NCBI GenBank assembly: GCA_030167865.1
Contig: JALAGF010000347.1
Location: forward strand, 59,612-79,611
DNA: 20,000 nt
Direction of reading: 5' to 3'
From: Craspedostauros australis
Lineage: Eukaryota
Shown here in pieces: positions 827 to 20,000 of this stretch. The notes under the pieces are model-generated. The model worked only from the letters and a program-made list of their open reading frames with translations. It ran no database searches and had not been told where the DNA came from. The stretch's first letter is position 1; each line of letters starts with the position of its first letter. The translations under genes were made by a program, and so were the position numbers.

Positions 827-2688
827 CCGCGACCATGATCGCAGTCGAGAGGGGAACCAACCACGATGACGACGATGACGAAGACGGTGATGGCGGCAAC
901 GTTGTCTTGTTGGTGTCACTTTCCGCGATGGTTGGTGCCCACGAAGGAAAATCCAAAATCGTGGACTGACACCGGATGAAAAATGTGCACCCATCACAAA
1001 GCGTGTGTCAAACACATGCCCACGACTCGCTTGCCACCACCAATCAATTCCTTCGCCATCTCCTCTCAGTCGTGCTTGCTCGATAGAAAAAACCATCTAA
1101 TCGGCTGAATCGAAGAACTTGCCCATCGCAAGTTCAACGCTTCCGGCTCTTTCGGAGAAATTTGTATCGATTATTCAAGCGTTAATATTGAATACGGTAT
1201 TGCATGTGTATCACATGGTTGCTGTTTCCCGAAAAGTGAAGTGTTGTTCTGACGTCAATCGTTTTGGCACCACGTATGCATGAGCATCCAATCAGAATTC
1301 AGTATTTGTCCATCGCACAATCTGCGATGCTGGCGATGTGTGCGCGGCGTACGTGTCGGCAAGAGCTCCACTTTTTGGCCTCGACACTCCTTCGCCAGTT
1401 CGCCGCCACGGCCAGATCGTCATCGTGTTTTTGCGTCGCTGATGCGATCAGACGCTGCGACACGCACGCACAAGCACATGCGTGATTTTGCTGGGTGGGT
1501 GGCAATCTTCCGAGACACTGAGAGAGATGATGACCTCGTCAACTGCTTCCGCAGGCACCCTTGCTTTCCCAGTCGTCAATTTCAACCAACCCAACCAAGG
1601 CCAAACACACAGACGCAGACGCAGAACAACCAGGCAGAACAAGTACCAACAAACACGCCTTTCTCACTGCGTGACATCCACGCATACACGTCCATGGTAT
1701 GGAAGAGTGCACACATCACGATTAATCCACGTATTGCCAGCATTAACGGCGCTATTAGTACGTCCCACCACCGCGAGACAGCGTTGCAATTGCTCTGCTC
1801 CACTTTCCTTTCCTCCGTAAAGCAATACCAATACTCCGCCCTCAAGTGCGACACCAACTCAACCAGAGGCGACGATTCACCACAACCACCAAACCAAACC
1901 AAACCTCTCAGACAAAGACAAAGACAAAGGACAAACAGCACTACCACAACCTCAAGGCAACACCAACAAAACGACTGCGTCGCCTTCTTTCCATCACACG
2001 CATCCTCCGATCGGATAGATTCTCACAGCGCTCACAAAATCAAAACAACCGCACAATTGCACACCAACACGCCAACACGAGTTCCTCACAACATTCTCAC
2101 AACTCCATTCTCCCATCCATCATCTCAGAAGGCACACAAAAAACGAAAGAAGAAGACACAACAACGGCTCGAACTCGCGCTCCATCACATCAGTTTTCCG
2201 ATCAGGTGAGTTCTGACAACGTCGGCGTTCCTTGCGTGAAAGAAAAACATCAACTTCATTTTCCTTGCGAAGCCATCGAGAAGTGCCGTCATTGTGACGA
2301 TTCCGTCTTGTGTTCCTACGTCATTCCGTCTCCGCACACGCAATCATCCATCAGACATGCCCCAGAAAACTCACACGAACATCAACCATTCACTGCCCTG
2401 CTTGCACGCCCACTTCCATCTCTGCTCGCATGGCGCGTTGCCGACCGCCACCGCGATTCATTGCGTGATTGCATTGGCCCGCCATCGCCTCGCATCATCG
2501 CAAAAAAACATGCGACGTCTTTCCATGCCTCCACACCATCACAAACACACAACAACGCACCCTGACACGGATGAACAACGACCAACGACCAACCCTTTAC
2601 GCCACATCACACGGATACTCCAAACGAAACAAAGATACCAACCATACACACCAAACCCTCAGCCAAATTCAATCCAATCTAATTCGCA

Positions 2689-3153
2689 ATGATCTCCAGA
2701 CAGAACATCCTCGCTTTGCTCTTCCTCTGCCTCTCCGTCTTCGCCTCTACAACAACGGCGCTCGTGGCACCATCTCCAATCCGCAGAACGGCAGCAGCAA
2801 CCTCGACCACCCTCGCCGCCACAGCACTCCAACGTCCTGCCGCAAGCACCGTCCTGGAACGATCGCAGCAGAAGCAGCGCCGCAATGATTCCAACGAACA
2901 GCGCGTCGGCGGTGATGCCTGGGAGGTCCGAATTTACAACGATGGATTGAACACGAGGGAATACGTGGCGCGATCCCTGGTCAAGGTCGTCGGCATTTCC
3001 GAGCTCACCGCCTACCAGACCATGATGCAGGCGCACAAGAATGGTATCGCCGCCGTCGGACGATGGGCCTTCGAGGTTGCCGAACTGTATCACGATGGTC
3101 TGCAAAAGAATGGCATCGTTTCCGATCTCGTTCCAGTCGACGAAAGCTCGTGA
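2689..3153 (+). CDS. clpS: ClpS-family N-degron adaptor of the Clp protease, predicted plastid-targeted
   Basis: C-terminal core WEVRIYNDGLNTREYVARSLVKVVGISELTAYQTMMQAHKNGIAAVGRWAFEVAELYHDGLQKNGIVSDLVP fits ClpS (V.L.ND..N..EYV...L......A...M..AH..G.A.V.....E.AE). N-terminus has a hydrophobic signal peptide (NILALLFLCLSVFASTTTA-LVAP) and an S/T/A/R-rich transit-like segment. Confidence 0.9.
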   Translation: MISRQNILALLFLCLSVFASTTTALVAPSPIRRTAAATSTTLAATALQRPAASTVLERSQQKQRRNDSNEQRVGGDAWEVRIYNDGLNTREYVARSLVKVVGISELTAYQTMMQAHKNGIAAVGRWAFEVAELYHDGLQKNGIVSDLVPVDESS

Positions 3154-3898: not shown

Positions 3899-6800
3899 TT
3901 AGATTGCATTGTACGACGTCGACATAGATGCCGCGGAAGGCGACACGCCGTCGACGCCAAGCAGGGGTTGTTGCGAGGCGTACCCAACTCTGTTGGCAGG
4001 GGCTGCTGATGCCGCTGGTGCCATCGGCGTCATCATCGCAAAGGACCAATAACTTGAAGGTGCTGCCGCCGGCTGTTGCTGGTGGCGATGGTAAAGAGCC
4101 TGCGATGCTCGTGCTTGCTGTGGTTGCTGGGTCGTCGCCAGTCCGGCAGGGCCACCAGCGGACGACACCATCACAGACTTCCGGTTCTTGTACATCCCAC
4201 CGATGATCGAGCCGCTGTTCAGGATGCCGGTGCCGTACACGTCCAGCTTTTGGAATGCCGAGAACGTGGAGAGGATGTCATCCTCCGTCACCTTGCCAAG
4301 TCTCACCAGCATCGCCAGCGCGAACATCTCCCTGGTGCATTCGTCCAGCCCGCTAGGACGCTGGGCACACAGATTCAACCGTCGGATCAACGGTCCTGTC
4401 GCAAGCTCGCGCAGGGCGGCATCGTCTAGCTGATCTCCGAACTGTGTCAGGACCGCCTTCTCGATGCGACGTTTACGCAATTCCAGCGGAATCATGCTGA
4501 TCAGCGACATGTTGTGCAGCAGTAAAGTGCCCGCCACGAGAATGTATACCGTGGCAAACAGCTTCCCACCTTTCGTTACTGGTGTGATATCTCCGTAGCC
4601 AACCGTCGTCAGAAGCACGGTGGTGAAGTACCAGCTGTCGACGACGGAGAAGTCTTCGATGAAGTAAAATCCCAAGCACCCGAATGCAATGATGAACATT
4701 GAATTCATCAACGCCTCTCGGAGCGTCAGGAATACGTACTGGCCATTCTTCACCATGCTGTACTTATCCTCCAGGTCGACTACACCATCAACGCTGCTCG
4801 TGGTGGATGATCCATCGGAGGTAGGAGCGTCCAAGTCTTGATTCAAGATACGAGGTGCTGGTATCCCGCCGAATGGATTTTGCTGCTGCTGCTGCTGCTG
4901 CAGCTGAGAGTATTGCAATGGGTGCTGTTGCTGCCCCTGTCGATGCAACTGGTATTTGTGCTCCTGCCGCATCCCTTGGTGTTGCTGCTGATTGAATCTG
5001 AGGAAATTCGCATTTGGCATGGGTGTTTGCAGGAGAGATTGCATGCCATCCATCATACTGGTGTTGCCTCCGATCACATCTTCAAATGTGGGCGGTAATT
5101 CGGCGCTGAACTTGCGCTGCTGCCACGTCGACCCCAAAGCCAACGCTGACCCACGGCCGTTCAAATCAAGCGATTCGTGCCTCGTGTGACTTTGACGCCC
5201 GAGGATCTGCGCCGTGAGAGGCGAGCCCAAATGGCTGTTGTTTTGCACTTTGGTTGCCGCGGTTGACTTCTTGCCATTATTCATTTGCACAGGTGACATG
5301 TCGATCGTTGACTTCGTCGCTGCTGCTGATGTTTGTGGCGGCGTCTGGACAGCTGCTTGCTCTTTCGCCTGCGCCACGACAGGTGTTGCTGTTGTCGATG
5401 ATATTGCTCCTGCTATCGCCACAGGTTCTCCAGTTCCAGGATTGGGTGCCGATGATTCGGTTATCGTGCCACTAGGTGATTTAGTGACCGCATTCCATGC
5501 TGGGCTTGTTTGTGCGATGTCCTTGCTGTCTGCAGACTCTTTTGGCGACAACATTGGGCCGCTGTTGAAGGAGTTGCTTGACGCGGATTGGGGGCTACCA
5601 AAGATATGCGACTCGCGGACACTGACACTACTGGGGCTCTTGATATCCTTGATGTGAATGAAGGCTCGGCTGTTGCTTCGGGCGCTCGAAGTGCTTGTTG
5701 GACGTTCGGAGAAGCACGCGACTGTCTTCATCTCCCTCACTGTCGATGGTATGTGCTTGCGTTGCCGCTTGGTATCGCGCTCCACGCTCTGGTCACCATT
5801 CGTGGTGTCGAATGATGGCCTGGGGGCGTACACTGAACGATCAGCGTGCAGTGGGCTCGCGTGTTGGGTCTGGAACAGCTGCTGATGCAGCCCACCATTG
5901 ATCGCTGCATCTTGGATGTTCTGCAACCTCGTGCAATTTGGACACGAATTGATGCGGTTCTCCTTGGCCTCGCGACGAGAGCTCTCGTCCAACATTTTGG
6001 CAATGTACGAACCGAGCAACAGACCGATGCATGCAACGCCGAAGTAGATGAACACAGAGCACATAATCTTCGCACCGTCGGATGTTGGCGCCAAATCACC
6101 AAGGCCAGCCGTTGTGAGTGTGATTACGGCAAAATAGATGCAATCCAGTGCAGGCCAGCCTTCCTGCATGCCGAATATGTACAGCGCTGCCATGACGTAC
6201 ACGCTGAAGTAAAATGCGATGTACCCAGCAGCGCTTTCAAACTGTCCCGATGCGCTGGACACCGTGAAGAACTCTCGTTGACGAGTTTTGCAGTTCGGGC
6301 AGATGTATGTTGGATACTCCGCATCGTCATCTTGGAGGGTTGATGTCATGGGACGGAAGCGTCTTCTGTCAGATAGTCGGAACCTTCGGTTCATGTTGGC
6401 GAATGGGGATCTGTCAGGTGAGGCGCCACCTTTCTGGCCAAACACGCCTGATTTAGTGCTCTGTCGTCTGGGGGACGCATCTGCCCGGTTCGATGGCAGG
6501 TCGTTGGCTCTCGATTCATCGCCATCCACATCGCGGACAATCTTCGGACTTAGCGTCGGTGTGGGCGTTGGCTTTGTCCGAGCCTTCCGATCTTTGGTGT
6601 CCACCGTGTCGCAGATGTTCAAACTCTGTGGCTCACGCAATGGTGTCATATCATCAGTCCCAGCAGATTGCACTAAATCAATCCCACCTGACGGTCGAGA
6701 GTTTGAGACACCATATTGATTCTGCGATGCCCATGATGTTGTGCCCAGGACGCTGGAATCGAAGCTGTTGTTGCCCCAAGGTGACGTGGCTGCGGGATTG

Positions 6801-9691
6801 TAGACATTTGGCTGCGCCTGCGCCTGTGCGTGTGTTGATCCGAAAGATGGAGTGAATGGTGACGCCTGCTGCTGTCTCTGCTGCTGTGGCTGCTGCCATC
6901 GATTGGCAGGAGTGGCCAAGACTGGGGCCGAGCCATCGGAAAAGGCGCTTCGTGGGCTGTCATTGTAAGTGGGAAGTCCTGATGGCAGCTTGCGCATACT
7001 CGCCTTCGCGCTTTCACTCCATTGGTTCTGAACTTGCGCCATGAACGACGATCTCGGACTGATTGCTGATCGAAGCGTTGCCGCTGGTACCGGTCCAGGC
7101 GGCGGCGGCGGAGGTGGAGGGGGCTGATGGAGATAGCGCTGCGCTTGCTGCTGAGATTGAGTATTCTGCTGCAATTGATTTGGATTCGAGAGATGGTTTG
7201 GTAGGTGATGATTGTGCTGATGCGGTTCTGCATGCATGCGTTCGTTGCTGTGTTGGTATTGTGGCTGCTCATGGCTTGCATATGGAAGTTGATGCTGATG
7301 CTGATGGTGGTTGTGCTGTTGGAAGAAATACTGTCTCTGCTGAACCATGGGACTGGGCAACGACGAAACTGCTGACGAGGCCGTCGAGATCGGTCTAGAT
7401 TTTGAGGATGCCGGGCGGTTGCCATCTGCTGCGTGATCGGCTGAATACAAGTTGCTGGTGTCAATAACGAGTCCGGTCCTCCCTCCCTGCGTTTGCAAAT
7501 CGGTCGTAGACCGTGGAGTTAGATTTCCCCTTGGCGATTGCAACCGTTCGAAGGATGTGGGATGGATCGTTGTTCGCATGTCGACAACCGGAGCGACCGA
7601 TTTGTAAGCTACGCTGAATGAACTACCTGTCCTCGAAGCTGAGAGGGCTCTCCTGTGCCGAACATGACGCCTTGCTGATCTCGACGTGGAAGATGCCCCC
7701 TTCCGACCACCGCTGCGTTGTTTCGGGTCACGTCGTCCACGCCAAGGGTGGGGTTTTGGAGATGTGGCCGAACCTGAAGTGTGACTGGGGATCTGAATGG
7801 TGCCAAGGCTGGGGCTGATCAGTCCTGACCCGTTGCTGGGAGAAAACGCTTGATTTGAACGACCAAAATCTGCACTGAATGAGTGCCTGGCGCGGGTCAG
7901 CGGAACGTTTTGGCCCAATTTGCTGTCGTCGTCATCAGTGTCGCCGTACGTAGATGGCAGCGGGATCTGATCCTGTTCCATTCCTTTCCATCCTTGGCCT
8001 CCATTGACGAGAGCGGCTGCGGCTGCATCACCACTGCGTTGTCTGTGATGGTGGCGGTTGTTGTCCACGTTGCGTCGACGGCTCCTGCGCGACCCAGCTG
8101 CCTTTTTTTCGTCATCAGGACACGGACGAGATTTTTGGTTTGGCGGTGCGCATCCTTCGTCGACTTTGTTTCTCCCATCTACGTTGGCACCGACATCACG
8201 TTGATCTTCGCGAGACAGTGATATTATTTGGGTTTCACCAAGATCGCTCTCGTCGGCGGATGCTGACAAGGTCATGTCGACGATGTCGTCGCCAAGCAGG
8301 AACAAGGAACTTTGGGTCAGTGTGGGGATCACCTGGCTCAATTGGCTTGGCGAATCCTGTGCATTGGAAATAACGCTCGCCTTCGCGTCCTTGCTCATGT
8401 CCTTGTTTACGTTGCTACGACCACCACCGATTGTACCAGCAACAACCGCAGTGCTTGCACCATCTGCAGCGGACGAAGTTGCCAGTGTTGACAATTCTTT
8501 CGGTGCCGATCTGTAGATGCTGTTGACGTGCGGTCGATTCTGATCCTGTTGATTTGGTGGATGGTACGATGATGCGAAGGAAGAGGTGGAGTCAAACTCA
8601 GCCTGCTTCAGTTTCCCTTCGCTGGAAACGCGCAAATCCGTGAGAAAAGTGTGTAACTGCCTCTTCTGGCTTTCCGAGAAGGCACTGGATGCCGACGCTG
8701 TTGACTTGTAGTTGTCGTGTTCCGAATTTTTCGCGGAGCGTGGCATCGTTGGCCGATACGGTGGCTGTCGTCGTTCTGGGAATGGTGAACCTTGCAGATC
8801 ATTCAGATCGGGTAAGCTAGACGGCGGCATGACGTGTTCGGAACCATAATCTGCATGGTGGTTTGGATGCTGTTCTTGATGCTGTTTGGGTACGTTGGGG
8901 GCATTGTCATTATCGTTGCTGTGGCGGGAAGTAGCATCAGCACGGTGGCTGTCCCAAGTAGGCTTGAGAGGACCAGTGTTGATGGACTGGTCGTTTTTGT
9001 GGGCATGCTCACTATCGGCATCGCCGTACGTGTCGGAACCTGGCCTCCTTGGGGCCCCTCCAGGTGAAAAGTAAAATTTCGTCCCGTTAATGTGCTGACT
9101 TTCAAAGGAGCTCAGGCTCGTGTTGCCAGGCGAAATGGTCGCATTTGCGTAGCTGTGGTTCCTTGCTGGAATCGGCGGATGTGCATGCTGCTGTTGATGC
9201 TGCTGTTGATGCTGCTGATTCTGATGTGCGTTTTGAGCAGCACCACTGAAGCTTCCGGAGGAGTAGAAGATCTGATTGTTTGCATTCGAATTAGCCTGCC
9301 TCTGTGTCGAATCCAACTCGCTCGTGGAAGGCTTGTTGAGGAAGATGTGACTGCTTTCCCCATCATTTGTATCCTGCTTCGTGTTCGGTCGTTTGGACTG
9401 GGTGTCCGCTCTCGCCTCTGTTTCCACTTCGACTTGGGCTTCCACTTTCGCTTTCACTTCCATGTGCTCGTCTACATTAACTCCCGCGCTTGCTTCCGGT
9501 TCTGTGCCAGCTCCTCCAATCATGGCTGATGCTGAAGCAGGAGCTCGCGATGATGTCAGCGGCAGATTCTGCGTCTCTGTTCTGTCGCCATGTTCTTCCT
9601 GAAGCGAGTCGCCAGATGCATCACCAACGCTGCCGTTTCCGTGGCTACTTCCCTTGTCGGCGTTTTTGGTGGTTCCGTTCTGTGCCATCAT
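3899..9691 (-). CDS. Two-pore-domain (TPK/KCO/K2P-like) potassium channel, ~1930 aa, with long low-complexity N-terminus and EF-hand-like C-terminus
   Basis: Pore 1 is DCIYFAVITLTTAGLGDLAP (GLG at 6098-6106) and pore 2 is DSWYFTTVLLTTVGYGDITP (GYG at 4592-4600), each flanked by two hydrophobic helices. The tail EMFALAMLVRLGKVTEDDILSTFSAFQKLDVYGTGIL resembles the plant TPK EF-hand region. The track start at 9781 is GTG; the first in-frame ATG is at 9691. Confidence 0.88.
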   Translation of the reverse strand: MMAQNGTTKNADKGSSHGNGSVGDASGDSLQEEHGDRTETQNLPLTSSRAPASASAMIGGAGTEPEASAGVNVDEHMEVKAKVEAQVEVETEARADTQSKRPNTKQDTNDGESSHIFLNKPSTSELDSTQRQANSNANNQIFYSSGSFSGAAQNAHQNQQHQQQHQQQHAHPPIPARNHSYANATISPGNTSLSSFESQHINGTKFYFSPGGAPRRPGSDTYGDADSEHAHKNDQSINTGPLKPTWDSHRADATSRHSNDNDNAPNVPKQHQEQHPNHHADYGSEHVMPPSSLPDLNDLQGSPFPERRQPPYRPTMPRSAKNSEHDNYKSTASASSAFSESQKRQLHTFLTDLRVSSEGKLKQAEFDSTSSFASSYHPPNQQDQNRPHVNSIYRSAPKELSTLATSSAADGASTAVVAGTIGGGRSNVNKDMSKDAKASVISNAQDSPSQLSQVIPTLTQSSLFLLGDDIVDMTLSASADESDLGETQIISLSREDQRDVGANVDGRNKVDEGCAPPNQKSRPCPDDEKKAAGSRRSRRRNVDNNRHHHRQRSGDAAAAALVNGGQGWKGMEQDQIPLPSTYGDTDDDDSKLGQNVPLTRARHSFSADFGRSNQAFSPSNGSGLISPSLGTIQIPSHTSGSATSPKPHPWRGRRDPKQRSGGRKGASSTSRSARRHVRHRRALSASRTGSSFSVAYKSVAPVVDMRTTIHPTSFERLQSPRGNLTPRSTTDLQTQGGRTGLVIDTSNLYSADHAADGNRPASSKSRPISTASSAVSSLPSPMVQQRQYFFQQHNHHQHQHQLPYASHEQPQYQHSNERMHAEPHQHNHHLPNHLSNPNQLQQNTQSQQQAQRYLHQPPPPPPPPPGPVPAATLRSAISPRSSFMAQVQNQWSESAKASMRKLPSGLPTYNDSPRSAFSDGSAPVLATPANRWQQPQQQRQQQASPFTPSFGSTHAQAQAQPNVYNPAATSPWGNNSFDSSVLGTTSWASQNQYGVSNSRPSGGIDLVQSAGTDDMTPLREPQSLNICDTVDTKDRKARTKPTPTPTLSPKIVRDVDGDESRANDLPSNRADASPRRQSTKSGVFGQKGGASPDRSPFANMNRRFRLSDRRRFRPMTSTLQDDDAEYPTYICPNCKTRQREFFTVSSASGQFESAAGYIAFYFSVYVMAALYIFGMQEGWPALDCIYFAVITLTTAGLGDLAPTSDGAKIMCSVFIYFGVACIGLLLGSYIAKMLDESSRREAKENRINSCPNCTRLQNIQDAAINGGLHQQLFQTQHASPLHADRSVYAPRPSFDTTNGDQSVERDTKRQRKHIPSTVREMKTVACFSERPTSTSSARSNSRAFIHIKDIKSPSSVSVRESHIFGSPQSASSNSFNSGPMLSPKESADSKDIAQTSPAWNAVTKSPSGTITESSAPNPGTGEPVAIAGAISSTTATPVVAQAKEQAAVQTPPQTSAAATKSTIDMSPVQMNNGKKSTAATKVQNNSHLGSPLTAQILGRQSHTRHESLDLNGRGSALALGSTWQQRKFSAELPPTFEDVIGGNTSMMDGMQSLLQTPMPNANFLRFNQQQHQGMRQEHKYQLHRQGQQQHPLQYSQLQQQQQQQNPFGGIPAPRILNQDLDAPTSDGSSTTSSVDGVVDLEDKYSMVKNGQYVFLTLREALMNSMFIIAFGCLGFYFIEDFSVVDSWYFTTVLLTTVGYGDITPVTKGGKLFATVYILVAGTLLLHNMSLISMIPLELRKRRIEKAVLTQFGDQLDDAALRELATGPLIRRLNLCAQRPSGLDECTREMFALAMLVRLGKVTEDDILSTFSAFQKLDVYGTGILNSGSIIGGMYKNRKSVMVSSAGGPAGLATTQQPQQARASQALYHRHQQQPAAAPSSYWSFAMMTPMAPAASAAPANRVGYASQQPLLGVDGVSPSAASMSTSYNAI

Positions 9692-10939
9692 CAAGAGAAT
9701 GGTCGCTCGGAGTGTTGTCGTTTCTGTTGCTTTTGTCGTTTCTGTTGCTGCGTTCCAGAGACTGCCGTGCTTCCGAGCCACAACAGAGGTGACAGGAGGA
9801 ACGAAGAACTACGAGTAGGAATGGGGACTCAACTTGGATGCAGCACTGTTTGCTCCAGCTCCGTCCTTTCACGCTGCTGCGTTCGATGTACCCGGAGGCT
9901 CGATCGCTGCCCTCTGAGTGTCCTCTCGACGCTTCCTCAGCACGCTGGTGAAATTGCGGCCAAGGACGACCAATCTTTCGGAGGTTGTGGTCAGGCAATC
10001 AGAGGTCCGAGAAGCTCGGTGCTCGCTCGGCAGTCCTCTCTTGCTTCCTCGCGGCAGATGCAGGTCCGTCCTGTCGCCAACGCCTCCGATTGCTTCTTCG
10101 CTTGGTTGCAACGTCTACAGTGTGCTCCCATGTATTGATTGTGCGTTGATGGCGCCGAAGTCGGTGCCTTCTCCCCTCTCGTTGTGTCTGACGCAAGCCA
10201 TCGAAGTGGACGCTCCTTCTTTGATCGCAGAAGGAGTACTTTGTCTCGGCAGAATTGGTTTGCTTAGTCGCTGTCGTAGCCGTAGTCGCAAGTGGGACGA
10301 GATGCGCTGCCAAACCAACAACGCCGACAGCGGCGGCAGTCCTCGCAGGTCCACCCAAAAATGGCGAAGTCGCGAAACTTTTGGATGGGCGTGAAACTAA
10401 CCCACGATTCGTTCGACCAAACGCAACACTGTCACACCTCACCAATTCAAATTTTGAAACAACCCATTCATCACACCGAACAGCTTTTTGTTCGTGAACA
10501 GATGAGGGACCAGCCGCTCACGAAAAGCGCGCCTTTTTTGCGATGGTTCGACTGCAGTCAAACAGGTATGAGTACGAACATGTCCATACCCGCATTATGT
10601 GTGATTGCCTTACTCGCACAAACAAACAGCAACGCGGTTCACGAGGTGCGAGATCATTCATCCGCGCATCATTGCGTTGGCAGGCCCTGCTCTTCAATGC
10701 AGCATACTCGGGCGCTTGCAGAGTGAAGGGACTGATCCCGTTGCCGAAACTTGGCGCTGCCGGCATTGCGATCGTAAATAGGAGGGGAATGATGAGCAAC
10801 CAAGCTGCTACGACAATCCATTTCCTTCTCCACGACTACGTCCGAGTGGAAAGAGGGGGAGAGTGGCCGTAGAGCGTGCACAACGTCTTCGACTCGAATC
10901 ATCTCATCGCTTCGTTTGTGACAACGAGCACGAGTTGCC

Positions 10940-11896: not shown

Positions 11897-12369
11897 TTTC
11901 CAATGGAAGTGAGGTTGGAGTGGATGTACTCGTTTCAGCGACAAGTCCGATGCTCCAGATCCAACTCGGTCTCAACCTCATTCTCGGCCACGGTTCCGAC
12001 TATCATAAGAACGCAATGCTCTAGATTATTCCGGAGAGAGACGTTGCTCTCCTAAAGTGTCGAACTGAGTATCCAACAAACAGCGAACGCAGTATTTGGG
12101 GGAAACTACCCAAGCCAGACTTTGCAGTACGAGGTAGTCTATTCTATTCCATCATTCTACAGCGCATGGTGCCACGAGTCTGAGTCACGAATGAAACGGG
12201 AATCAGTGACGTCGATCGTCACGGCAGAGTCAAATCGCCTCAAACTGCTGCCTCCATCCGGTCTTGTTGTGCGGTGACGCAGCGGCGTCGGCTGCGATGG
12301 CGTTGGGACAATGACCAAGGCAACGACTCCGCGCAAGGCAAGGAGGCGACGATCCTCATTCCGAACACG

Positions 12370-14028
12370 ATGATCCGCAACACACGTCCTTCCACAGCGG
12401 CAACATCTTGTCTGCTGCTCTGTCTCGGTTCGTTCCGAACTTTACCATCGATTCTTCCAAAGAGCGCTGCGTTTGCGTTGACTCCATTTGTCGCTGATCA
12501 AAGATCCCGCTGTTGCTCGCTCACTCCGTCTCGCTCCAACGAATACCAACTGCGGTTCGACGTGATGTCATCAGCGCCACGGACGCGACGCCAACGAGCG
12601 GCATTCACATTGTCACAAGCACCGAATGGCATTGCATCGCTGTCATCGTTGTCAATGGCAGGGACGACATCAGACGTTTCGACGAATTACCTCACAGCCC
12701 AGACGAACGGAAGAGTGACACGACGAAGCTTGCGATTATCCTTGGCAGCAGCGGCGTCATCGTCGTCGCCGTCGCCGTCGCCGGCTCATTCTGATATGCT
12801 ACTCGACAAAGATGAAATCTCGAAACCGCCTCCAAGAAAACGAAAGAGATCGGCCGAGCAAACGGATCCGAAGCAAGAGGCCTTCGAACCATCATCAGTG
12901 ACAACCGAGACGGCGAGATCGCGAAGAAGCAAAGTCAGAGGATCCGCAGCTTTGCCCTCACAAGTTCAGTCGGTTCCATCTCTCCAGGAACCAATGGTGG
13001 AGCCAATAGAAGTTCAATCTCCCATGGAAAATGGCGGCCATCATCGTCAGCATCGTCAGCATCGTCATCAGCAGCAGGGCCAGCCTGAGGAAGAGAAGGA
13101 CAATGAGGAGCAACGAGTCGCAGCTAATAATGTTGACCCTGAAGAGGTTCCATCTGCACGTGTAAAGAAGAAGTCGGCCACAACGAAAGCGAAGACGAAG
13201 GCCAAGACGACAAAGAAAAGAGCATCGTCCAAAAAGCCACGCAAGATCGCGGGCGTGCCACGCAAGGAACCACCCGGCTGGGAAGAGGTGTACTCCATTG
13301 TGGAAGAATTGCGCAGCGACCGCACTGCACCTGTCGATACGGATGGAAGCGAAGCGTTGCCTCAGAAACACGAAGTCACGCCACAGACTTACCGTTTCCA
13401 AGTTTTGATTGCGTTGATGCTGAGCAGTCAAACGAAGGATGCGATTGTTGGTGAAGCCATGAGGAAACTGCAGGCTCACGGGCTGACGGTGGACAACATC
13501 TCACAGACGCCGCCGGAGAAACTGAATGAGCTCATTCGCAGGGTGGGATTCCATAACAACAAGACCAAGTACATTAAGAAGGTCGTGGAGATCCTCAAGG
13601 ACGACTACAATGGCGACATCCCGCCCACGGTGCAAGGCATGATGGAGCTTCCTGGCGTCGGTCCCAAGATGGCGTACATCGTCGAGAACGTGGCGTGGGA
13701 TCGCGTTACGGGGATTGGTGTGGATACGCACATGCACCGGCTGTTCAATGTCCTGGGCTGGGTGGATTCCAAGACTCCCGAACAAACGCGGCTGCAACTG
13801 GAATCGTGGTTCCCACGCGAACGGTGGGGAACGGTGAACTTGCTGTGGGTTGGATTTGGGCAGGAGATCCAGCAATTCAAACCCAAGCTGCTGCGCAAGG
13901 CGTTGGACAGCAGCAAACCGGCGGATGCGCTGAAGCTATTGAAGAAGCTGGGAATGGATTACAAGAAGGAAGGCGCCAAAGCTGACATGACGGAGGACAT
14001 TGAGAAGGTGCTGGGAACATCAAAATAA
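12370..14028 (+). CDS. NTH1: Endonuclease III homolog (NTH1/NTHL1-like HhH-GPD DNA glycosylase/AP lyase) with long N-terminal extension
   Basis: Motifs APVDTDGSE, RFQVLIALMLSSQTKD, LIRRVGFHNNKTKYIK, HhH ELPGVGPKMA (catalytic Lys), IGVDTHMHR (catalytic Asp), TPEQTRLQLESWFPRERW..VN.LWVGFGQ. The track start at 12274 is GTG; the first ATG is at 12370 and is followed by a signal-like segment and SAA-FAL. Confidence 0.93.
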   Translation: MIRNTRPSTAATSCLLLCLGSFRTLPSILPKSAAFALTPFVADQRSRCCSLTPSRSNEYQLRFDVMSSAPRTRRQRAAFTLSQAPNGIASLSSLSMAGTTSDVSTNYLTAQTNGRVTRRSLRLSLAAAASSSSPSPSPAHSDMLLDKDEISKPPPRKRKRSAEQTDPKQEAFEPSSVTTETARSRRSKVRGSAALPSQVQSVPSLQEPMVEPIEVQSPMENGGHHRQHRQHRHQQQGQPEEEKDNEEQRVAANNVDPEEVPSARVKKKSATTKAKTKAKTTKKRASSKKPRKIAGVPRKEPPGWEEVYSIVEELRSDRTAPVDTDGSEALPQKHEVTPQTYRFQVLIALMLSSQTKDAIVGEAMRKLQAHGLTVDNISQTPPEKLNELIRRVGFHNNKTKYIKKVVEILKDDYNGDIPPTVQGMMELPGVGPKMAYIVENVAWDRVTGIGVDTHMHRLFNVLGWVDSKTPEQTRLQLESWFPRERWGTVNLLWVGFGQEIQQFKPKLLRKALDSSKPADALKLLKKLGMDYKKEGAKADMTEDIEKVLGTSK

Positions 14029-14991: not shown

Positions 14992-15153
14992 TCGTAGAAT
15001 ACGTGCACGTAGTTGCGCAGAGGGAATGACAGGTGTTGCGCGAGTACGACTTTGGGGAGGGCCACGAGCGTATCTTTGGGAACAGGGCGACACTTGCTGA
15101 TCCGTGTCATGGAATCAAGTCAGGGAGAGTATGGGGTGGTCCAGAGAGCTCGT

Positions 15154-15226
15154 GTGTCCTTGTGTCTTGTGTCCTTGTGTCTTGTGTCCTTGTGTCTTGT
15201 GTCTTGTGTCCTTGTGTCTTGCGTCT
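15154..15226. repeat. Minisatellite of alternating GTGTCCTT / GTGTCTT units (about 15-bp period)
   Basis: gtgtccttgtgtcttgtgtccttgtgtcttgtgtccttgtgtcttgtgtcttgtgtccttgtgtcttgcgtct read directly, upstream of the 14991 start. Confidence 0.9.
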
Positions 15227-15663
15227 CTCTGTGTTCTCTCTCGATGTCAATGAACAGGGAGGCGCGGTAATCCACTTGAGTGGTGCATTACAAAGGGGCT
15301 TTTTCGTCACAAAACGGTGTCCTTCACCTTTTTTCTAAAAATTTTAAATCGCAATTCCGGATGCTTTCGGACACGCCAAGTTTTGCGATGCGATCGTCGC
15401 TGATGTGCCGACGCTTCGGTGATTGTCTCGCTCACAATTTTTTGTGTTTTGCCCATGACATCACAGGGTGCGCTTCTTCCTGCGTCGTTCCTTGTCTCTC
15501 CGCCATTGGCGTTGGAATGGTCGTCTGCGGCATCTGCTGCCTTTGGCCTCTCCGGTCTGTACTAACACTGACACATCACCATTGTTGTTTGGTGATAAAA
15601 CAACACACCACCACTCCTCCACAGTACAGTTGTTGTCGCTGTTGGACTTCGCCTCGTTGTCGC

Positions 15664-15735: not shown

Positions 15736-16278
15736 TGGTTTTTCGTCTTGATTCCTGCAGCTGTTTCGTCTGTGCTCCCGTTCATCGACCTTGGCCTTTT
15801 CACTCTGCGCGATCGCACAGCGATTCGTCCGGGTTTCTGTTGTTGCCGTCCTCCCATTGACGGAGTCTGCGTGGCCGATCTTCCTTCGCGCTCCATCGCT
15901 TCCATTACACAAAAGCACAACAGAGACACAGTCAACGCAACAGTCCAACAATGTTCGTGCCTTCTCGGCACATGTTGTTTCCTCCGTTGATCGCGCCTCC
16001 AGGCAATTGTTGTTACGCCCCAAATTTGATGCCAACACGCGCAAACAATCCACTTACATGTACTGGTTGTGTGTTCCATGAAGTTTTGCCTGTTACCATC
16101 ACACAACACTGGTGGTCGAGATGCAACTTCATCGATCAGGCTAATAGTAGTACACTCCTAAGTCACATTCGTTTGGCCCTGCGGCGTATCAATCGCGGAC
16201 ACGGTGGCAGAGACGTTTAATTGTTAGAGCAACCTCTTCAATACGAAACGTGTGTCTACTTTAAATGAAATATGCAGT

Positions 16279-17288
16279 CTAGTCGTGACCCATTCGCTGT
16301 CGGGCTGTGGCCAGCGCCTTGTCGGCGTCGAACGCTGGATAGCCATTACCGAGTTCGATCTGGGTGATGACCACCACTGCATGGAACACTGTGTGATGCT
16401 TGTCCACATGGTGACGCCACTTTTGTCCCAGACAGCCCCATTGCTTCAATCTGCCGTTAATCGTTTCGTGGCGAGCACGAAGAATGCCATCCGCTTTGTA
16501 CGTGGGAGGAAACACTTTGTCATCTCCTCTGTAGCCGTTGTCAGCAATCACAACCTCGTCTGCCCGTATTGCTTGTTTAAGCTCAGAGCGGAAGATGGCC
16601 AGGTCGTTCATGTATCCACACGGAAAGGGGCCGTTCACCCAAACAATGTCTCCTCTACTGATGGAAACAGCAACTTCATACCTCACACCAGCAGCTTTGA
16701 ACTTGTGCGAGTACCACACTCTGTTGAATGGTTTTGGGTCGTTAGTGCGAAAGTCCGTGCCATCTACAGTTAAGAAAGCACTTCCATCTCTGTCTGCATC
16801 AATGAAGCGATTGTCTAGGTCGATCTGTAGGCAAGCAAGATGGATACGAGCAGTCACGAATGGAAATTGTGAGTGAGTCGTGGTAGGCGAAAAAAAGAGA
16901 GCTCGCATTTTTTGGGGTTCTCATGTGCTGTACTTACAATGTCGTGGCGCAACTCTGCCACAGCTCGGGCCATGGCCCACGCCCACTTGCGGAAAGTTTT
17001 CGCGTCGGTGTCCATCATCCGCGCCACCACTGTCTCCGCCAAATACATTCGGAGGAACGCGCACATCCAAAGGAGGTGCTTCGGCTTCGCATCGAAAGGG
17101 AGAAGACCTGTGCCAATCAGGTCTTCCCAGAGGAGGTGAGTGATGTATGGGTCAGTGCCAAACATCCCGCGAAACTCTCGCAACTGTGTATCGTTGAGCA
17201 CGTTGGCATCATGACAATCCAGTTCGCGTCGCATGAGCGCAAAGCCTTCCACGGCGAATTCACCTGCGTGCCTGTCCTCCAGTTCCAT
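16279..17288 (-). CDS. Harbinger/PIF-like DDE transposase, two exons (17288-16938 and 16824-16279), 298 aa
   Basis: Exon 1 contains FRGMFG...KPKHLLWMCAFLRMY..E.V.A....D.KTFRKWAW (HTH region). The 113-bp intron 16937-16825 runs GTAAGT...CCTACAG, phase 0, joining RHDI|IDLDNRF. Exon 2 contains VDGTDF, WYSHKF, YEVAVSI..GDIVWVNGPFPCG..NDL, ADNGYRG and RARHETINGRLKQW, giving an intact D-D-E triad. Confidence 0.9.
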
Positions 17289-18074
17289 GCTTGTGGGTTT
17301 GTGCGAGCGCTGATTCGACTACGTGGAGTCAAAGTTCGTGCGGATTTCCACGAAGACAACATTTTGTGAAGTGACAGCAACATTGGCAAGTTGAGTGGTC
17401 AAGGAGGAAGTGGCTGCTTGTATCGTAGGCTGCCGATGCCCATGTAGTCTACAAATTAGCTCCTCCAGTTGCCAACTCCAAGCCTGTATGGCATGCGATG
17501 TATAGCCATGCTCGACCCTCCCATGACTTCGTTTGCCACCGATGATGTTGGATGTCCCACTTGATGTTATCCGTCTCTTGCTGTGTGGCTTACAAGAAGG
17601 AGAGATGCTGGCAGTAGAAAAGCAGGACATCTAGGCATTCACGATCATCGGGGGCATTGGACTGTTTGACCCTCCATGACTACAGCAATGAGCGCCTAGA
17701 CAAGCGTGCTTATATAGTTGACCGGAATGCAATGTTGATGACCCACGTGCTCATACGCAATGAAAGACTTCTAGTATGGGAAATGGTGGACTCCTCAACC
17801 AAAGTCCGCTGTCGGCTTGCTCGTCTTGTTCCATCGACACATGGCGAACAAGCACCGTCAGTCCTTGGGACTCTTGCAGCTTGGCGCGCCACCTACAAAC
17901 GACACAACACGAACAGAGACGGTGGCAACGAATCTGTACGGCGGCACATTGGCGCCACTCAATGCCAGCACATCGGCGCCTCTCCCCCGATACGCAACGC
18001 AATTCGCGGCCTTCGCCAACTTGGAAAGTTCCATGTGGGATGTGGAAATCTGCCCCGTGAGTTCCAAATAATTG

Positions 18075-18476
18075 TGGGCCCCTCGGTATTGCCAATTTAA
18101 TTTAAATTATAATTCCGGCCCTTGCTCCCTAGCATTCCGGCCCAAAAAGCGAAATATCTCACACTTCCGTCGTCTTGAGATGAAGAATACGCTGAGAATT
18201 CAAAATTAATTTAAATTATAATTCCACCCGGAATTGTAATGAGAATTGTTTGTTTTGGGTCGAAAAATTTCATCGTCATGTTCACCACGAGAATGCACGG
18301 AGAATACGCTGAGAGTTAAAAAATTATGGAAAGTACACTTGTAATATTTTGGAATGGACGAAACATTTCATCCGTCGTGTTCATATGAATCATACGTTAA
18401 CAGTTAAAAATGTATGAATAGTACAATTTCACCCGGTATTGCAATTGTAATAATTCGGGATGGACGAAACATTTCG
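18075..18476. repeat. AT-rich degenerate tandem repeat, about 100-110-bp period, roughly 4 copies
   Basis: CGAAA[T/A/C]AT[C/T]TC anchors at 18150, 18261, 18359 and 18465. Shared blocks: agaatacgctgaga (x2), taatttaaattataattcc (x2), tggacgaaacatttc (x2), cggtattgc (x2). Confidence 0.75.
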
Positions 18477-18773
18477 GGAACAATACAGCGTGATTTGCTG
18501 TGACTTTCGGAGGCGCTCTCGTAGAGACGCGCCTAAATGCTGTCGTGTAACGCGCTATCATGTATGCGGGACAGCGCCGAAACAGGAAGTTCCCGCCACG
18601 AAGTCTGTTACATAGAGGCAGGACTTTAATAGCTCTGCTGTTCGTATGGACTACTACTACTACAAGGCTGGCCGTTTCAATGGTTTGCAACAAGACATCA
18701 GGATGCACTGCAAGAGTGTGGTTGGGAGGATGTTACCACCTGTCGTTTCACAGACCAACACACAAAAAGCAAC

Positions 18774-20000
18774 ATGGCCAAACCCAAACGTTGGGTGTAT
18801 AGCAGCGCCCAAGTGCAAGAGCTCAAAAACCAAATCCGGAGTGAAACCATCAAACCCGAGTGGAGTGCAAAAGAGGTGTGGGAGAGGTCCGAAACAGCAC
18901 GGCTGTTCATCTGGAGCGAATTCCCTCGGAATCTGTCGAATCTTCGTGCCAAGGTCCGCCAGGAACAGAGTAAGTACCTTGAATCGATGCAGACAAACAT
19001 GACTTGCTTGACTACTGTATGCGTGACTCATAATTTGTGACTCATAATTTGTGACTCGTGATTGGATTGTTTCAGTCAGGAAAGATCCCAACGAATCTCC
19101 GACCGTTTCTGAGCTTGCTGCGAACGCAAAAACGATTCGAGAAGCTTCTCGAATGATCCGAACTGACATCGACCTAACCGAGGTAGACAACAACAACGCA
19201 ACAAAGCCATCACCACCACCGCCAAAACAAACAACCACCACCATCACCCTTCCACACCACCCACCACCAGCCACGACCAAGATGACTCCTTCACCACCAG
19301 TCGCCACAACTGACGCCGATGTCATGAATTGGCTCGACGCCAACAACAAACACGAACTTCCAGTCACTCGCACTTTCTACCGCAACAACAATGGTGAACG
19401 CGTCATTGATCTTGCGTTTGAACTCACCGGTGGCACTTGCCACAAAGACCTTCGTGTTCATGTCGCGCCTGGCGGCATGTCTGTTGTGCTTGAAGTGACC
19501 CAAAACGCTGCTCTTGCGAACATGGAACTTCTGCATGACCATTTGCGCGATGACTTCACACTTGCCAACGGACAGTGGGTGTCGCCTTTCATCGACGAGA
19601 AGGCACGTGCGGATGCTACCATGAAGTCATTGTCTCGCATGAAACAGCGCGACGGAGCACCGGTGCGAACTCAGGTCGTTAATTTGCCGTTTGCTGTGAC
19701 AAATCGATGGGAACGCGCGACAGATGGTGTTCTCAACGGCATCAACTACTTGGAACTTGAGGTTCAGACAAACGACAAACAAGGGGTGGTAAGGGCGCCT
19801 GTTCTAATCGTGCGCGTTGTGGAACAGAACAGTTCTCATCCCATCGTTTCTTTTGTTCCACAAGCTCGTTCTACACATAAGCGCACTGTCATCGCTGGCT
19901 TGTCGCTGGTTGGGGCGACTACGCCCCAATCCCGGCTTGACCTCAACACGCGCAAAACATGTGTGCCCTCCCGTTGCGATGACTCCAGCATTGGAACCGC
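18774..20000 (+). CDS. Transposon ORF2, 3'-partial, exons 18774-18969 and 19076 onward: Myb/SANT-like N-terminal domain, Pro/Thr linker, possible HSP20/alpha-crystallin-like domain
   Basis: Exon 1 reads MAKPKRWVYSSAQVQELKNQIRSETIKPEWSAKEVWERSETARLFIWSEFPRNLSNLRAKVRQEQ. A phase-1 intron 18970-19075 (GTAAGT...TTTCAG, 106 bp) gives A|TC AGG AAA. The frame from 19081 is stop-free to base 20000 (over 300 codons), which is why the track misses it. Confidence 0.72.
19023..19057. repeat. 14-bp tandem repeat GTGACTCATAATTT x2.5 inside the ORF2 intron
   Basis: gtgactcataattt gtgactcataattt gtgactc read directly. Confidence 0.9.

Follow-up and report, generated by a model that had tools for sequence, protein, structure and literature searches.

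The window analysed here is a stretch of 20,000 nucleotides from Craspedostauros australis (contig JALAGF010000347.1 of assembly GCA_030167865.1, positions 59,612 to 79,611 of the forward strand), and all coordinates below are those of the window. Between 16279 and 20000 it carries two genes that lie head to head on opposite strands, 1485 nt apart: a DDE transposase gene on the minus strand and, on the plus strand, an open frame, hereafter ORF2, that continues to the edge of the window. Upstream of this unit lie host genes for an acyl-CoA-binding protein, for an ion channel of 1960 aa and for an HhH-GPD glycosylase. An acyl-CoA-binding domain is encoded at 3-539 on the minus strand. Positions 3899-9781, also on the minus strand, form a single open frame of 1960 codons which, since it contains two Ion_trans_2 stretches (Pfam E 1.3e-25), we read as a very large potassium-channel-like protein. 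The two strands differ strongly in composition at 1500-3000, with a GC skew of about -0.3 and an AT skew of up to +0.3, and several plus-strand open frames overlap there; Pfam returned no match for the plus-strand frames 1280-2209 and 1846-2565. The glycosylase, of the HhH-GPD / endonuclease III type (12274-14028, plus strand, Pfam E 5e-21), has a low-complexity N-terminal extension of about 375 aa. A TGTGTCC/TGTGTCT microsatellite at 15153-15234, with a period of 7 or 15 and about 10 or 5 copies, separates a host gene from the unit on its transposase side.

The transposase is encoded by two exons on the minus strand, 16938-17288 and 16279-16824, separated by a phase 0 intron of 113 nt (16825-16937, GTAAGT...CTACAG). 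The 117 aa of exon 1 can be aligned, beginning at M1, with 10 relatives that are 274-317 aa long, and 14 columns of this alignment are invariant. Exon 2 encodes 181 aa followed by a stop codon and contains the DDE_Tnp_4 catalytic core (Pfam PF13359, E 2e-10; 41 bits, the cut-off being 24.8). The product is complete at 298 aa, a length that agrees with that of its relatives, and Pfam detected no domain in it besides DDE. The columns of D21, D95 and E120 of exon 2 are invariant over 17 sequences, and we take these candidate catalytic residues to be the DDE triad. As judged from its sequence, the transposase appears intact and complete. Its family is abundant and diverse in metagenomes: among 801 candidates, 747 matched at E ≤ 0.001, the best of them 57% identical, and one of the 747 is named as coming from the diatom Fragilaria crotonensis.

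ORF2 begins with an ATG at 18774. Its first exon (18774-18969) comprises 65 codons and one base and is predicted to encode a three-helix N-terminal domain; a putative phase 1 intron of 106 nt follows (18970-19075, GTAAGT...TTTCAG), and exon 2 (19076-20000) is open to the window edge. In agreement with the initial annotation, excision of 18970-19075 at this putative junction leaves a single frame open to 20000, and the peptides quoted there, the helical start, the P/T-rich linker and the aromatic residues W7, W30, W36, F45, W47 and F50 are all present. Within the window the exon 2 frame stays open over at least 307 codons, ORF2 as a whole spanning at least 373 codons in two or more exons. Exon 2 encodes, in order, a short helical stretch, the P/T-rich linker (19204-19299), a C-terminal domain of about 156 aa (19357-19824), which is the segment that had been called alpha-crystallin-like, and a tail (19825-20000). 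Eleven GT...AG pairs would keep the frame open, so the chosen junction is not the sole option; it is the one with the best consensus among them. The first eight bases of the putative ORF2 intron, GTAAGTAC, are also those of the transposase intron. Inside the ORF2 intron, at 19023-19057, lies a perfect 14-nt tandem repeat, GTGACTCATAATTT, in 2.5 copies.

Codon usage was scored against two host genes of the same window. The log-odds of 19333-19824 are 0.132 in the proposed frame versus -0.066 and -0.422 in the other forward frames, and are comparable to those of the transposase exons (0.094 and 0.125). The signal is weak in exon 1 (0.049) and in the tail, measured over 19825-19998 (0.024). The stretch 19333-19824 is probably coding in the proposed frame, as is the partner gene overall.

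The same arrangement was found on a contig of 2810 nt (L004), which carries a transposase 44% identical to that of the window (E 2e-42). On the opposite strand, about 520 nt upstream of this transposase and head to head with it, lies a frame of 308 codons whose residues 17-52 correspond to residues 1-36 of ORF2 exon 1, with a Met-Ala start in both. The similarity of exon 1 to this frame reaches a BLASTP E of 0.004 and a Smith-Waterman z of 5.0, a score attained by one of 2000 shuffles, and 16 of 65 columns are invariant between exon 1 and the N-terminus of the related protein. The related gene continues in the same order: first a GT...AG stretch rich in AT, then a short linker, then a C-terminal part of about 150 aa in colinear alignment with 19357-19824 (about 21% identity). 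This C-terminal similarity is weak (BLASTP E 10): with BLOSUM45 it gives a z of 2.3-2.4, the score being reached by 23-24 of 1000 shuffles, and with BLOSUM62 it is at chance level (z 0.6, 261 of 1000 shuffles). Overall, the partner proteins of the two loci are some 20-25% identical where the transposases are 44% identical. The donor of the transposase intron falls at the same aligned codon in both loci, and all 10 frame-keeping GT...AG pairs of the related partner gene are in phase 1, as is the junction in the window; the strongest-looking donor of the related gene is not among these 10. The best candidate ends in L004, 97-113 and 2719-2735, lie outside both genes and match in 15 of 17 bases, a value equalled by 6 of 300 shuffles; their flanking triplets, TGG and AGA, do not match each other.

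L004 has been placed in a bacterial (Bacteroidota) bin, but this AT-rich contig, with a Harbinger transposase gene split by an intron and a partner gene beside it, is probably eukaryotic and binned in error. The protein of its partner gene, deposited as hypothetical and bacterial, forms a singleton cluster, and no second copy of the element turned up elsewhere in the bin. When genome_contigs was scanned twice more by motif, the same locus was the only real relative returned (one of 13 stretches in one scan and the single stretch in the other), and a scan of viral_contigs for the flanks of transposase relatives returned nothing. Three metagenome contigs with transposase relatives, of 1.1-1.5 kb, end short of any partner gene. 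The comparison of partner genes is one between the window and the one relative with flanking DNA.

Between the two genes of the window lies an AT-rich block (18075-18480, 39% GC against about 52% around it) made up of about four degenerate direct repeats of about 105 bp. The block contains a motif with AATTCCGG in both orientations, and its repeats are possible candidates for protein-binding or promoter sites. A motif ending in AATTCCGG recurs once more outside the block, at 15343-15360. No convincing pair of terminal inverted repeats or target-site duplication was found inside the window, the right end of the element lying beyond its edge. Among the pairs considered as ends and rejected, being at chance level by our own estimate and having unmatched flanks, are the inverted pairs 15337-15363 / 18225-18251 (70%) and 16137-16152 / 18655-18670 (81%), and a 20-nt direct repeat at 16026 and 19937 (17 of 20).

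That no inverted repeats or target-site duplication could be shown within the window would agree with the transposase and its neighbour being a co-domesticated pair of host genes, such as HARBI1/NAIF1 or HDP1/HDP2, that is no longer mobile. Both genes look intact, and the closest relative of the transposase is only 57% identical, which would also suit domestication; against this, each of the candidate DDE residues sits in an invariant column, metagenomes contain many and diverse members of the transposase family (747 matches), and adjacent divergent genes in two very different genomes, one of about 52% GC and the other AT-rich, correspond to the layout of an element. To our knowledge, the known domesticated Harbinger pairs have not been reported as adjacent. 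We consider domestication unlikely, and instead prefer to read the two genes as parts of one transposon.

ORF2 had been described as a Harbinger ORF2 with a Myb/SANT-like head. The first part of this description is borne out by the complete DDE_Tnp_4 neighbour and by the recurrence of the head-to-head pair at the related locus. The Myb/SANT label finds no support from Pfam, VIA-align or a PDB profile, and the aromatic residues on which it drew are mostly not kept. AlphaFold2 predicts three helices in exon 1 (residues 11-23, 32-46 and 51-64), with a pLDDT of 78.1 in the best model and of 54-64 in the other four. The combined AlphaFold and Foldseek check that had been proposed for this domain thus yields three helices, but the model has no match in the PDB at E ≤ 0.001 and only four matches in all, each at E ≥ 5.6. 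Pfam gave no match of Myb/SANT/MADF type for exon 1; at E ≤ 1 the search returned nothing but a scorpion peptide family and QLQ, the latter with an E of 0.034 that falls below its cut-off, and the N-terminus of the related protein matched no Pfam family up to E ≤ 10. None of the 50 VIA-align matches listed for exon 1 is titled Myb or SANT, and a two-sequence profile of exon 1 and its relative found no Myb/SANT chain among PDB sequences at E ≤ 10. Among the spaced aromatics, W36 and F50 alone are shared with the related protein, and W7 and W30 are not kept. It is plausible that exon 1 encodes a small helical domain and candidate DNA-binding head; because no Myb/SANT signature was detected, DNA binding by the partner is here an assumption.

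For the C-terminal domain, the initial annotation had proposed a pattern of the alpha-crystallin domain (ACD) or CS type at 19357-19824. By eye, the proteins of both loci share a hydrophobic strand, an L-(P/T)-x-G motif, an x-V-x-V strand and a later L-P-x-x-V motif, and these by-eye motifs occupy the places of the LPG and LP..V motifs of ACDs. The G-V-L motif of the window domain is absent from the related protein. In mid-domain there is an insert of 45-55 aa, at a place where ACDs carry a short loop. Pfam searches to E 10 with both proteins and with the isolated domains returned no HSP20, CS or ArsA_HSP20, and searches of PDB sequences with each sequence and with a two-sequence profile returned no small heat shock protein; the best matches in these PDB sequence searches were phenylalanine ammonia-lyase (E 0.14) and a chaperedoxin (E 0.57). 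We also built an ACD HMM from 26 domains of 30 bacterial loci (4 near-duplicates dropped; 38 of 41 genomes had a match) and ran it with filters off. With this profile, which comes from one bacterial phylum and so is not the most sensitive possible, the window domain scored -0.6 bits, a value equalled or exceeded by 104 of 500 shuffles; for the related domain the score was -1.2 bits, and 270 of 500 shuffles equalled or exceeded it. In hhalign, the two-sequence alignment was matched to the ACD alignment with a probability of 0.2% and a score of 12.3, compared with 11.8 ± 2.4 for 100 column shuffles; the register chosen was the same as that of the initial annotation. Structure prediction on the single sequence of the window domain gave a mean AlphaFold2 pLDDT of 32.4, too low for a usable model, and the ESM Atlas model of the related protein (pLDDT 0.40, nearest models at TM ≤ 0.27) was likewise unusable. 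The supposed ACD/CS pattern is thus at chance level in the Pfam, PDB sequence, HMM and hhalign tests.

The reading to which that pattern belonged takes the C-terminal segment for a diverged beta-sandwich of HSP20/alpha-crystallin or CS type, joined to a Myb/SANT domain and serving oligomerisation or anti-silencing. What speaks for it are the LPG-like and LP..V-like motifs seen by eye in both proteins and the shared hhalign register, set against Pfam and PDB sequence searches without HSP20, CS or small heat shock protein, profile and hhalign values that all lie within the shuffled range, the long insert and the G-V-L motif missing from the related protein. The functional analogy drawn with Arabidopsis is indirect as well: the background on HDP1/HDP2 and IDM2/IDM3 was given correctly, but according to PMC5339849 neither HDP1 nor HDP2 bound IDM2, IDM3 or MBD7 directly. 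We regard this reading as quite improbable, and a transposon that carries its own alpha-crystallin module is, at the level of these comparisons, so far not supported.

Searches for homologues of the partner protein gave the following. With phmmer, it had 0 matches among 1.84 billion representative proteins; a 5.8-billion word-index search with exon 2 yielded 3742 candidates, none at E ≤ 0.01; exon 1 compared with longer proteins gave five candidates and no homologue; and 112 pattern matches in metagenome_contigs included no relative. The C-terminal domain of the window matched no Pfam family up to E 10 and no PDB sequence, and ESM Atlas returned no usable match for it. It appears from these searches to be an orphan, lineage-specific domain without an assignable family or fold. 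One might suppose, from the failure of both large searches and from the weak codon scores of exon 1 and the tail, that ORF2 merely neighbours a Harbinger transposase, either as a host gene of other origin or as a frame open by chance. This is very improbable in view of L004, where a gene with a recognisably similar N-terminus stands in matching order and orientation next to a related transposase, and in view of the at least 307 open codons and a codon pattern at 19333-19824 like that of the transposase exons.

Most likely, the ORF2 frame is the transposon's own fast-evolving partner gene. Because orientation, gene order, N-terminus, intron phase and layout are common to the two loci, beside homologous transposases and in two very different genomes, a shared two-gene unit is the best reading of the data, and we think it probable, with appreciable room for doubt, that 16279-20000 is a two-gene unit of the PIF/Harbinger superfamily with a divergent partner gene as described. 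Membership of the superfamily is indicated by a DDE_Tnp_4 domain with an intact triad (PF13359 and the invariant D, D and E) and by the linked second gene, the latter resting on one relative.

We hypothesize that the partner protein consists of an N-terminal three-helix domain of about 60 aa, a P/T-rich disordered linker and the C-terminal domain of about 156 aa. If it acts as the partners of characterised Harbinger elements do, the helical domain would bind repeats in the element DNA, and the protein would bind the transposase and bring it to the nucleus; the C-terminal domain would be a candidate protein-protein or self-association module. This domain seems to evolve much faster than the transposase, and for that reason would look like an orphan. 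A complex prediction with the two transposase exons and partner exon 2, made without alignments, gave a score of 0.00 and a partner pLDDT below 50, and counts neither way. A more far-reaching proposal is that a diatom-type Harbinger lineage replaced or extended its Myb-like partner with a non-canonical helical DNA-binding head and a conserved C-terminal domain, either a divergent ACD/CS-like beta-sandwich or an undescribed fold, that acts as an oligomerisation or chromatin-facing module; we judge this distinctly unlikely.

Taken as the transposon's partner gene, ORF2 is ordinary but previously unannotated; it would belong to a Harbinger element of diatom type and encode a C-terminal domain that is an orphan. 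What appears to be new here, from sequence comparison, is the gene pair of L004, in which a 44%-identical transposase has the same head-to-head neighbour. With it, a second, conserved gene is added to a transposase family frequent in marine and diatom-type sequence data, a gene that would otherwise be annotated as an orphan or left unannotated, and the two loci together illustrate the speed at which Harbinger partners diverge. The idea of a transposon-borne alpha-crystallin module should not be propagated without a structure.

Among the papers listed in a literature search on Harbinger and alpha-crystallin/HSP20, none describes a Harbinger partner with an ACD; the supplementary tables of PMC4482050 may already list stramenopile families of the kind seen in the window. 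The likeness of the ORF2 C-terminal domain to HSP20 and CS/p23 domains is confined to two short motifs and alternating hydrophobic stretches recognised by eye, whereas its profile scores are at chance level and it has a long mid-domain insert. Among described elements, a second ORF is carried by Harbinger-type groups according to PMC4482050. The NuwaI elements, described there as a PHIS group with a DDE-only transposase, resemble the unit of the window, in which a short transposase (298 aa) likewise contains DDE only and is accompanied by a second ORF. According to PMC9392472, Harbinger partner proteins are far more divergent than the transposases, import the transposase and bind the ends of the element. 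The partners with which ORF2 is best compared are the Myb-like protein of Harbinger3_DR, ORF1 of Ping/Pong, NAIF1, HDP2 and ALP2, which it resembles in being a second gene beside a DDE_Tnp_4 transposase. Unlike these Myb-like/ORF1 partners, ORF2 has no Myb/SANT/trihelix signature by Pfam, Foldseek, VIA-align or PDB profile, and it adds a C-terminal domain of about 156 aa without a known family. Like them, it opens with a small, predicted helical domain and has diverged much further than its transposase, and by analogy with the partners described in PMC9392472 and PMC4482050, its role would be expected to be the same: DNA binding together with recruitment and nuclear import of the transposase.
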